62,750 nt of DNA, filler included, from Basidioascus undulatus (GCA_000826855.1; 20 parts of 20 records of this genome joined end to end with filler, not necessarily neighbours in it), one strand, 5' to 3'. Positions 38,770 through 60,739 are shown, counted from the whole stretch's first letter. A program made the numbers and translations. The notes: a model not told the origin generated them from the letters alone.

Positions 38770-39215
38770 TCACAGTCCCGCGCTATCCCCGTCGACAATA
38801 GCCCCCACTCCCATCAGCTCCCCGCTTACCCACTCTCATGTGCATCCGTAGCTTACGCGACACCCGAGTTCCATTCCCAGGTCTGCTTCTCCAGCCCGAG
38901 GAGTAACAGCTGAGCAAGAGCCCGACATTGGCGAGCAGCCCGGCGAGGACGAAGAGTAGGGTGAAGAGGGCGACGCGGACTGCGCCGAGTACGGGACGGC
39001 ATAGAGCCTGTTGGGGGTATTGAGTGGGTATATCGAGGGAAAGGAGGAGGATATCGAGAAAGATGAGAGGTGGAAGAGAGGGAGAGGGAGAAGACGAAGG
39101 TATGCTTGATTACGTCGGGCCGATACCCTGCCCGGAGCGTCGATCGTCCCGGCTGAGTTTCAGGAACATACCGCTCGAGCCCAGCAGGATATTGATGATG
39201 CCCCAAATATACTGA
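38770..39215 (-). pseudogene. Remnant of a membrane-protein gene, possibly the C-terminal part of a third paralogue
   Basis: YIWGIINILLGSS and LIFLDILLLSLDIPTQYPQQALCRPVLGAVRVALFTLLFVLAGLL. LSLDIP....QQAL resembles LTLDFP....EQIAL in paralogue B. Confidence 0.35.
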
Positions 39216-39352
39216 AGGCAAAACGTGAGCCAATTTTATGTATCCTGGAATGAGATTCAGGGCACTGACTCGACGAAACTGGTGCACCAATGTTTGAAAG
39301 AAGACTCAACAACTTGTTGGCATCGCTTGTTGTAAAGCAGCGGTACTTCGTA

Positions 39353-39425
39353 ATCAGGGGGTTGCAGGTTCGATCCCTGCGTCGGTCATGGCCGGCTGGC
39401 TCAATGGTAGAGTATCTGACTACGA
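39353..39425 (+). tRNA. tRNA-Arg(ACG) with halves in inverted order (candidate circularly permuted gene)
   Basis: 39353-39388 is positions 38-73 (ATCAGGGGGTTGCAGGTTCGATCCCTGCGTCGGTCA). After a 1-nt spacer, 39390-39425 is positions 1-37 (GGCCGGCTGGCTCAATGGTAGAGTATCTGACT[ACG]A), followed by CTTTTT. Reordered halves fold into a full cloverleaf. Confidence 0.75.
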
Positions 39426-39578
39426 CTTTTTNNNNNNNNNNNNNNNNNNNNNNNNNNNNNNNNNNNNNNNNNNNNTTAATTAATTAANNNNNNNNNNNNN
39501 NNNNNNNNNNNNNNNNNNNNNNNNNNNNNNNGGGGGGAAGGTTCGCTTCGCATCCGTCGCTGTGGGCTTCGAAGAGCT

Positions 39579-54976: not shown

Positions 54977-55048
54977 TTCCCCGTCCGGGAATCGAACCCG
55001 GGGCTGGGCGGTGAGAACACCCGATGTTAGCCACTACACCAACGAGGA
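54977..55048 (-). tRNA. tRNA-Glu(CUC), intronless
   Basis: Reverse complement is TCCTCGTTGGTGTAGTGGCTAACATCGGGTGTT[CTC]ACCGCCCAGCCCCGGGTTCGATTCCCGGACGGGGAA. Confidence 0.95.
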
Positions 55049-60560: not shown

Positions 60561-60639
60561 AAAAAATATGTGCTGGCAAGCCAGCATCCTTCTCTGGGAA
60601 AGCGTGTCATCCTTGTGCAGGGGCCATGCTAATCTTCTC
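60561..60639 (-). ncRNA. U6: U6 snRNA, 3' part (5' end lost at contig break)
   Basis: Reverse complement GAGAAGATTAGCATGGCCCCTGCACAAGGATGACACGC...CATATTTTTT contains the end of the ACAGAGA box, the AGC triad, the ISL and the oligo-U terminus. Confidence 0.93.
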
Positions 60640-60739
60640 NNNNNNNNNNNNNNNNNNNNNNNNNNNNNNNNNNNNNNNNNNNNTTAATTAATTAANNNNN
60701 NNNNNNNNNNNNNNNNNNNNNNNNNNNNNNNNNNNNNNN

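Follow-up and report, generated by a model that had tools for sequence, protein, structure and literature searches.

Type II permuted tRNA genes, which are divided at the 37/38 junction, have been described in Cyanidioschyzon merolae, in prasinophyte green algae and in the nucleomorph of Bigelowiella natans (Soma et al. 2007; Maruyama et al. 2010; covered in the accessible part of PMC3978253). The permuted tRNA-Tyr(GTA) gene of Thermofilum pendens (Chan, Cozen and Lowe 2011, via the same part of PMC3978253) has an intervening sequence of a single nucleotide. Among the known permuted tRNA genes treated in the accessible text of that review, intervening sequences range from 1 to 74 nt, and the gene with the 1-nt spacer also encodes its CCA. 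Two models of origin are set out there: a tandem duplication after which the outer halves are lost, and reverse transcription of a permuted or circular pre-tRNA. The part available of the same 2014 review (PMC3978253) states that permuted tRNA genes are possible in principle in eukaryotes that have 37/38 introns and upstream promoters. The accessible text of a 2026 review (PMC13578239) still names only a red alga, green picoalgae, a nucleomorph and an archaeon as lineages with permuted tRNA genes; in what is available of the two reviews, such genes are found singly or in small numbers (in one red alga, some of the green picoalgae, the nucleomorph and one archaeon). A literature search that included the accessible text of both reviews found no permuted tRNA gene in fungi.

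The DNA analyzed here (the window; 62,750 nt) consists of about 20 contigs joined by 19 linkers of N runs around TTAATTAATTAA. Its sole long contig (17124-39431; 22,308 nt) ends with a permuted tRNA-Arg(ACG) unit (Table 1) that lies 6 nt from the contig end in a fragmented draft assembly, the T run forming the last letters of the contig. The first-pass annotation placed the 3' half one T upstream of its own 5' half, put the split at 37/38 and described a CTTTTT directly after the 5' half, and the letters of the window agree with all of this, the two halves corresponding exactly to tRNA positions 38-73 and 1-37. The annotation also saw no second 5' half upstream. When either half was searched with up to 3 mismatches, each occurred once in the window, with no further copy in the other contigs. 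A circle or a tandem copy of the whole 22-kb contig was considered and rejected because the start of the contig shares nothing with its end.

Table 1. Coordinates of the permuted tRNA-Arg(ACG) unit and its upstream features in the window.
Feature	Position	Strand	Remark
TTGAAA	39294-39299	+	59 nt upstream of 3' half
AT-rich patch TTGTTGTAAAG	39327-39337	+	16-26 nt upstream of 3' half; possible TATA-like element (weak)
Leader end CTTCGTA	39346-39352	+	directly before tRNA position 38
Leader TCGTA	39348-39352	+	complementary to U33-A37 (TACGA); G at -3
3' half of tRNA-Arg(ACG), positions 38-73, 36 nt	39353-39388	+	anticodon-stem 3' strand to discriminator A, T arm and variable loop included
B box	about 39367-39377	+	inside 3' half
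Intervening T, 1 nt	39389	+	between discriminator A73 and G1
5' half, positions 1-37, 36 nt	39390-39425	+	acceptor 5' strand, D arm, anticodon-stem 5' strand; last base A37
A box	about 39397-39407	+	inside 5' half
Anticodon ACG	39422-39424	+	in loop of 5' half
CTTTTT, Pol III terminator-like T run	39426-39431	+	directly after A37; contig end

As described in the accessible text of PMC3978253, the algal and nucleomorph type II genes share with the unit the position of the 3' half upstream of the 5' half on one strand, the 37/38 junction, the T stretch after the 5' half, the lack of a terminator between the halves and the inverted order of the A and B boxes. The unit differs from these genes in its fungal host and in its many dispersed copies, where the genes in that text number one or two. 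Its intervening sequence is 1 nt long, compared with 7-74 nt in the eukaryotic cases given there. Unlike the type II genes, the unit has no clear bulge-helix-bulge, and it is known here from DNA alone. Arg(ACG) does not appear among the entries of Table 1 of PMC3978253 in its available form. The 1-nt spacer between the acceptor ends is shared with tRNA-Tyr(GTA) of Thermofilum pendens, but that gene, as the same text describes it, is archaeal and single, and it has a 59/60 junction, an encoded CCA and a longer acceptor-closing loop. Measured against the accessible parts of this literature, the fungal kingdom, the many copies and the shortest eukaryotic spacer are new, and the type II permuted layout itself is known. 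Both models of origin, as they stand in that text, fit the unit.

Public data were also scanned for comparable loci. In a metagenome scan, a T loop-to-D loop pattern with a gap of 10-30 nt returned 0 loci and a junction pattern returned 116, 11 of which had a T-arm or D-loop word nearby; none of the 11 was tRNA-like. A scan of prokaryote genomes also returned 0 loci. The open minus-frame translation of the unit, searched as a protein, gave 1 match in 1.84 billion representatives (E 6.6e-04, 38% identity, 1,706 aa), which was taken as chance.

The first-pass annotation assigned the DNA to a fungus, and the other contents of the window agree. Eukaryotic genes in the window include those for Ist1, a CCDC90-like protein, a UAA transporter, a bestrophin of the bacterial/fungal type and a copia gag, and an intron reads GTGCGC...CTGAC...CAG. 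The search with the CCDC90-like protein yielded 3 proteins over threshold among 1,209 candidates, the best homologues being those of Wallemia hederae (71% identity over 32% of the query) and Phellinidium pouzarii (67%). Judged by this eukaryotic gene content and the basidiomycete best protein matches, the host is a fungus and probably a basidiomycete. Both CGC and CGG codons are in use in the genome and, from the use of CGC and established decoding rules, the genome needs a tRNA-Arg(ICG).

Several smaller features of the window were also recorded. An open frame at 13347-14045 (+) contains a GAG-pre-integrase domain (E 1.2e-11) and is a copia-type retrotransposon fragment in a 2-kb contig. ARAGORN calls a tRNA-Glu(ctc) at 54977-55048 (-) that falls below the gathering threshold for the Rfam tRNA model. 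A U6 snRNA match at 60575-60641 (-; 46.7 bits against a gathering score of 44) lies at the end of a 2-kb contig, with its upstream promoter missing; together with the permuted unit, it makes two contig breaks at small-RNA sequences in the window.

The halves were sliced from the window by script and joined with the 5' half first, and ARAGORN then called a tRNA-Arg(acg) of 72 nt with four complete stems, as the first-pass annotation had drawn it. Read from the sequence, U8, A14, G18G19, A21, U33, G53T54T55C56, A58 and C61 are all there. Four G-U pairs (2-71, 6-67, 10-25 and 27-43) occur in this copy. The wobbles G10-U25 and U27-G43 were listed earlier, but that list was incomplete since the acceptor stem also has G-U pairs at 2-71 and 6-67. 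In genomic order the locus is seen neither by ARAGORN nor by the Rfam tRNA model. For a rotation screen, 11,775 doubled 100-nt segments of the window were passed through ARAGORN with introns allowed, giving 9 joint-spanning calls. Five of the nine fall at the permuted unit and the remaining four are false, coming from segments cut inside ordinary Lys and Leu tRNA genes. The screen thus revealed no other permuted tRNA in the whole window, and three shuffles of 11,775 segments each gave 0 joint-spanning calls. These controls confirm that the permuted layout is real and not due to chance.

In the minimum free energy (MFE) fold of the unit in genomic order, the 5-nt leader TCGTA pairs with 39421-39425 and forms a nearly continuous leader-loop helix of 5 bp with one A x C mismatch, and a canonical bulge-helix-bulge is absent. 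The complementarity of TCGTA to TACGA, pointed out in the first-pass annotation, is thus present in this fold, but the C32-G(-3) pair proposed alongside it does not form at the same time, since G(-3) then pairs with C35. On paper, a second conformer is conceivable in which C32 pairs with G(-3) and 3 nt are bulged. The fold energy is no better than that of shuffles (z -0.29).

Contigs from four public runs of three studies were matched to 38932-39431 at 85% likeness; all four runs consist of contigs, not reads. X1 (2014) and X2 (2025) hold 35 million letters each and are separate studies, X1 possibly being the same data as the assembly. X3 is a run from the sample of X2, and X4 is labelled a soil metagenome. 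The unit is covered by 44 pieces in X1 and 45 in X2, and 23 pieces in each of these two runs, one of them the left-flank contig, extend beyond one or other end of the stretch. The A73-T-G1 junction is bridged in contigs of all three studies (X1, X2 and X4) with at least 31 letters on each side, a result that speaks against the misassembly that the first-pass annotation had named as a possible explanation. The single-copy left flank forms an 18,226-nt contig with a depth of 18.4 in X1 and 50.4 in X2, and in both runs it reaches 39371, 19 nt into the 3' half, and goes no further, which is what the start of a repeat would produce. Short junction-crossing pieces (39359-39414 or 39359-39411) have depths of 175 and 298 in X1, and the matching pieces in X2 have depths of 473 and 650. 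These depths are 9-16 times that of the flank, and each piece is 1 letter off the window copy.

Long contigs of single-copy depth, 1.2-50.7 kb in length, enter or leave the unit with differing flanks. The flanks diverge upstream before 39337, 39348, 39353 or 39358 and downstream after 39425 or 39430, and none of the pieces listed leaves the unit between 39359 and 39424. One contig in each of X1 and X2 holds all of 39353-39431 with 6 changed letters, and X4 has a 151-nt contig in which 39353-39428 differs by 1 letter and lies between unrelated flanks. The core is 95-100% alike in most pieces. Degenerate copies with 5-6 changed letters exist, as does one without similarity at 39353-39357. The unit is therefore a dispersed multi-copy family and neither a one-off nor a misassembly, which rules out a single accident and turns the question into one of a gene family or a repeat. 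Contig depth, a poor measure of copy number, points to roughly ten to thirty copies per genome, an estimate in which a dikaryon could double the contigs per locus. The first-pass annotation had offered either a functional permuted gene or an insertion derived from a circularized pre-tRNA. Both readings remain, but a single insertion is excluded by the multi-copy family.

Copies of the two halves in normal order were sought in the same contigs. Among the pieces listed for X1, X2 and X3 there is no normal-order joint (39425 to 39353), no foreign sequence before 39390 (in front of G1) and no loose end after 39388 or 39389 such as a normal trailer would give. The missing 39425-to-39353 joint among the pieces listed also led to the rejection of an ordinary tandem array with 1-nt spacers. 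In X4, a loose end before 39352 did show a tRNA-Arg that belongs to another organism and has the normal order; the same method is thus able to show an ordinary gene. It follows that, among the pieces listed, every matched copy of both halves in the fungus is permuted. Contigs show presence and not absence, and the matching would miss an ordinary tRNA-Arg(ACG) gene if both of its halves fell under 85% likeness. The annotation had raised the prospect of an identical conventional gene elsewhere, and none is found among the X1, X2 and X3 pieces listed. It had likewise envisaged an ordinary intron and 3' half beyond the contig end; at other loci no 3' half follows the 5' half in the 30, 30 and 20 trailer letters shown.

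The sequences bordering the core differ from copy to copy. Read by eye over 19-30 letters, the leader ends in TCGTA, TCGAG (X2), TCGGG (X4) or TTGAG (X3). TCGTA is found in the window copy, in at least 3 other contigs of X1 and in 2 of X2, and copies of this type have loose ends before 39348 (2 contigs of X1, 1 of X2) or before 39337 (1 contig per run). T(C/T)G at -5 to -3, with G at -3, is kept in all four leader types shown, and positions -1 and -2 vary. The leader can thus still pair with C35-G36-A37, the C-to-T change at -4 leaving a G-U pair. After A37 the trailers read CTTTTT (window), CTTTT followed by G, TTCTTTTG, or CTT followed by ATTTTG (X4); all are T-rich at once, and their first letters (+1 to +3) vary among copies. 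The ordinary tRNA genes of the window end in TCATTTTT, ATGTTTTT and TTACCTTTG, which are T5 terminators.

Further upstream, the 30-letter ends of the TCGTA-type copies carry TAAAG or GTATTAG, as read by eye, at a distance similar to that of the AT-rich patch of the window copy. The hexamer TTGAAA of the window copy is also found 38 nt before tRNA-Lys(CTT) (18418) and 39 and 52 nt before tRNA-Glu(CTC) (55087 and 55100), and it is absent within 100 nt of tRNA-Leu(AAG). It may be an upstream Pol III element of the host, an observation made post hoc for a motif found 26 times when both strands of the 61,078 non-N bases are counted. A 10-mer, GCATCGCTTG, occurs upstream of both tRNA-Leu(AAG) (21212-21221) and the unit (39320-39329), with a BLAST E of 5.8, and is maybe due to chance.

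The preferred reading is that the unit belongs to a dispersed family of working permuted tRNA-Arg(ACG) genes, which would be matured via circular RNA in a basidiomycete-like fungus; drawn from sequence features, it is given a probability of roughly 0.45. The putative pathway is modelled on the algal cases and on known fungal enzymes. Pol III would start at least 5 nt upstream of position 38 and stop at the T run after A37. The upstream AT-rich element, proposed as the promoter because the B box precedes the A box, would probably direct the start of transcription. The transcript would fold into the tRNA body, with A73-U capping the acceptor stem and leader positions -5 to -3 pairing with C35-A37. 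The tRNA splicing endonuclease would then cut at -1|38 and 37|+1, and the fungal tRNA ligase would join A37 to A38 to give a 73-nt circle. RNase P would open the circle 5' of G1, the single U after A73 would be trimmed, CCA would be added and A34 would be deaminated to inosine.

Working genes are favored by the complete cloverleaf with all of its universal tertiary positions and by the lack of a comparable result in the shuffles. They are also favored by the many copies at different loci, by the kept leader triplet, by T-rich trailers like those of ordinary genes, by the missing ordinary counterpart among the pieces listed and by the need of a CGC-using genome for tRNA-Arg(ICG). A near-invariant core beside variable letters at -1 and -2 and at the start of the trailer is the pattern expected if the tRNA part is under selection. 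Against working genes, the B box comes before the A box, an order in which transcription directed by TFIIIC in the standard way would not be expected. The 1-nt spacer comes without an encoded CCA, and the acceptor end is closed by A73-U with the first base pair unable to form in the circle. The lack of a canonical bulge-helix-bulge, the four G-U pairs and the existence of degenerate copies also count against them. Finally, most copies seem to share the leader start and the CTTTT end, which would also fit retro-copies of one transcript. A stronger form of the proposal, in which all tRNA-Arg(ACG) genes of the fungus are permuted, have spread to tens of loci and have replaced the ordinary genes so that this tRNA is made only via circular RNA, is suggested by the same sequence comparisons and is put forward tentatively, at clearly less than even odds.

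That last point against working genes also counts for the main rival, which has an appreciable chance of being correct, if short of an even one. According to it, tRNA-Arg(ACG) gave rise to a dispersed repeat without function, either SINE-like or a family of pseudogenes, whose members are retro-copies or DNA copies of one permuted founder. They would stem from reverse transcription of a circularized or tandem pre-tRNA, or from a tandem duplication that then lost its outer halves, and decoding would be left to ordinary tRNA-Arg genes, none of which is among the pieces listed. The shared unit runs from about -5 (-13 to -16 in some copies) to the T run, like one Pol III transcript from start to terminator, and members with 5-6 changes occur in X1 and X2. 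Two leaders read, by eye, GGTAG before TCG.G and resemble the end of the D loop in a preceding unit. When the 5' half was aligned, anchored, to the 39 nt ending at 39352, the score was 3, equalled by 117 of 6,296 null windows (p about 0.02), which fits a decayed outer half; without anchoring, however, 52% of null windows score as well and the similarity is insignificant. The upstream sequence thus holds at most a faint trace of a decayed outer 5' half.

In tRNA-derived SINEs, a head with the A box before the B box leads into a body and then a tail that is A-rich or LINE-related. tRNA-derived repeats are common in eukaryotes, whereas no permuted tRNA genes are known in fungi, and the order of the boxes and the 1-nt spacer speak against easy expression of the unit. 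With tRNA-derived SINEs and pseudogene families the unit has in common that it is short, dispersed, multi-copy and derived from a tRNA, with some members degenerate. It differs from SINEs in its permuted order with the B box before the A box, in lacking a body and an A-rich or LINE-like tail, in ending with a T run and in its intact cloverleaf. The unit is only about 85 nt long to the T run, beyond which the flanks differ, and the layout of a tRNA-derived SINE was not found. Nor did the literature search find an example of a fungal tRNA-derived SINE or tRNA pseudogene family. A young repeat should resemble its parent, but no similar normal-order parent is seen among the X1 and X2 pieces listed. 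The core is also far better kept than -1 and -2 and +1 to +3, both sides of the break fall precisely at 37/38 and the cloverleaf has no defect, all of which argue against a repeat.

X3 contributes a form of the unit of its own. A 93-nt contig reads 39381-39410, TTGAG, 39353-39410, with two junctions in tandem and with its first and last 30 letters identical. It corresponds to a 63-nt cycle in the assembly graph and to a tandem or circular shortened unit without positions 23-37. This form is seen in X3 and is not among the pieces listed for X1 or X2; a rearranged, repeat-like form of this kind would suit the repeat. A 264-nt contig of the same run follows the window over 38848-39094 and then continues with 17 unrelated letters that are not in the window. 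Positions 39095-39096 are the GT of GAAG|GTATGC, which is like a 5' splice site on the + strand, and X3 is without cover over 39102-39339. X3, guessed to be DNA, may be transcript data. If so, the unit would lie inside, or just before the end of, an intron of more than 337 nt in a + strand gene, and the junction pieces of X3 would be RNA.

It is improbable, by comparison with working permuted genes, that the units are expressed as a small structured RNA other than a decoding tRNA, either a capped tRNA mimic like YrlA or a 5'-half-like RNA running from the A box to the T run. YrlA (RF02553) is the only Rfam match of the genomic order (31.3 bits, E 7.9e-05), and the match spans model positions 15-94 of 114, covering the T arm, the capped acceptor-like stem, the D arm and the closing stem. 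In the tRNA-like module of YrlA the topology is rotated in the same way, a T arm, a capped acceptor-like stem, a D arm and a closing helix following one another. A mimic would accord with the A73-U cap, whose shortness makes RNase P cleavage and 3' processing difficult, and with the continuous closing helix that the leader and the anticodon-loop side form in the MFE fold. The score, however, is far under the gathering score of 69, the Ro60-binding helix at the other end of YrlA is unmatched, and the unit was not assigned to this family. Any permuted tRNA would give such a partial match. YrlA is also bacterial, and in a mimic an intact anticodon loop (CUACGAA) that is split exactly at 37/38 and reorders into a standard tRNA has no purpose.

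An assembly artefact, or a tandem of ordinary tRNA genes with introns that is truncated at the contig end, might be suspected from the position of the unit at the edge of a fragmented draft and from the fact that no single public contig runs from the unique left flank through 39431, but it is very improbable given the bridging of the same junction in three studies, a unique flank that enters the 3' half and has no 5' half anywhere in the preceding 22 kb, the lack of contigs leaving inside the unit or of normal-order joints among the pieces listed, and other copies flanked by long single-copy contigs and not by short introns.

Should the units have no function, they would remain an uncommon record of how a circular or tandem pre-tRNA was copied into a genome many times over. 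If they work, permuted tRNA genes extend to the opisthokonts, and a splicing endonuclease of the yeast type, a ligase of the Trl1 type and RNase P are able to carry out the circular pathway. RNase P and 3'-end processing would then face an acute substrate problem, as just two nucleotides close the acceptor end. Working units would also mean that permuted genes can spread and replace ordinary ones. Since standard tRNA finders miss the permuted unit, such a genome would seem to be without its main arginine tRNA.
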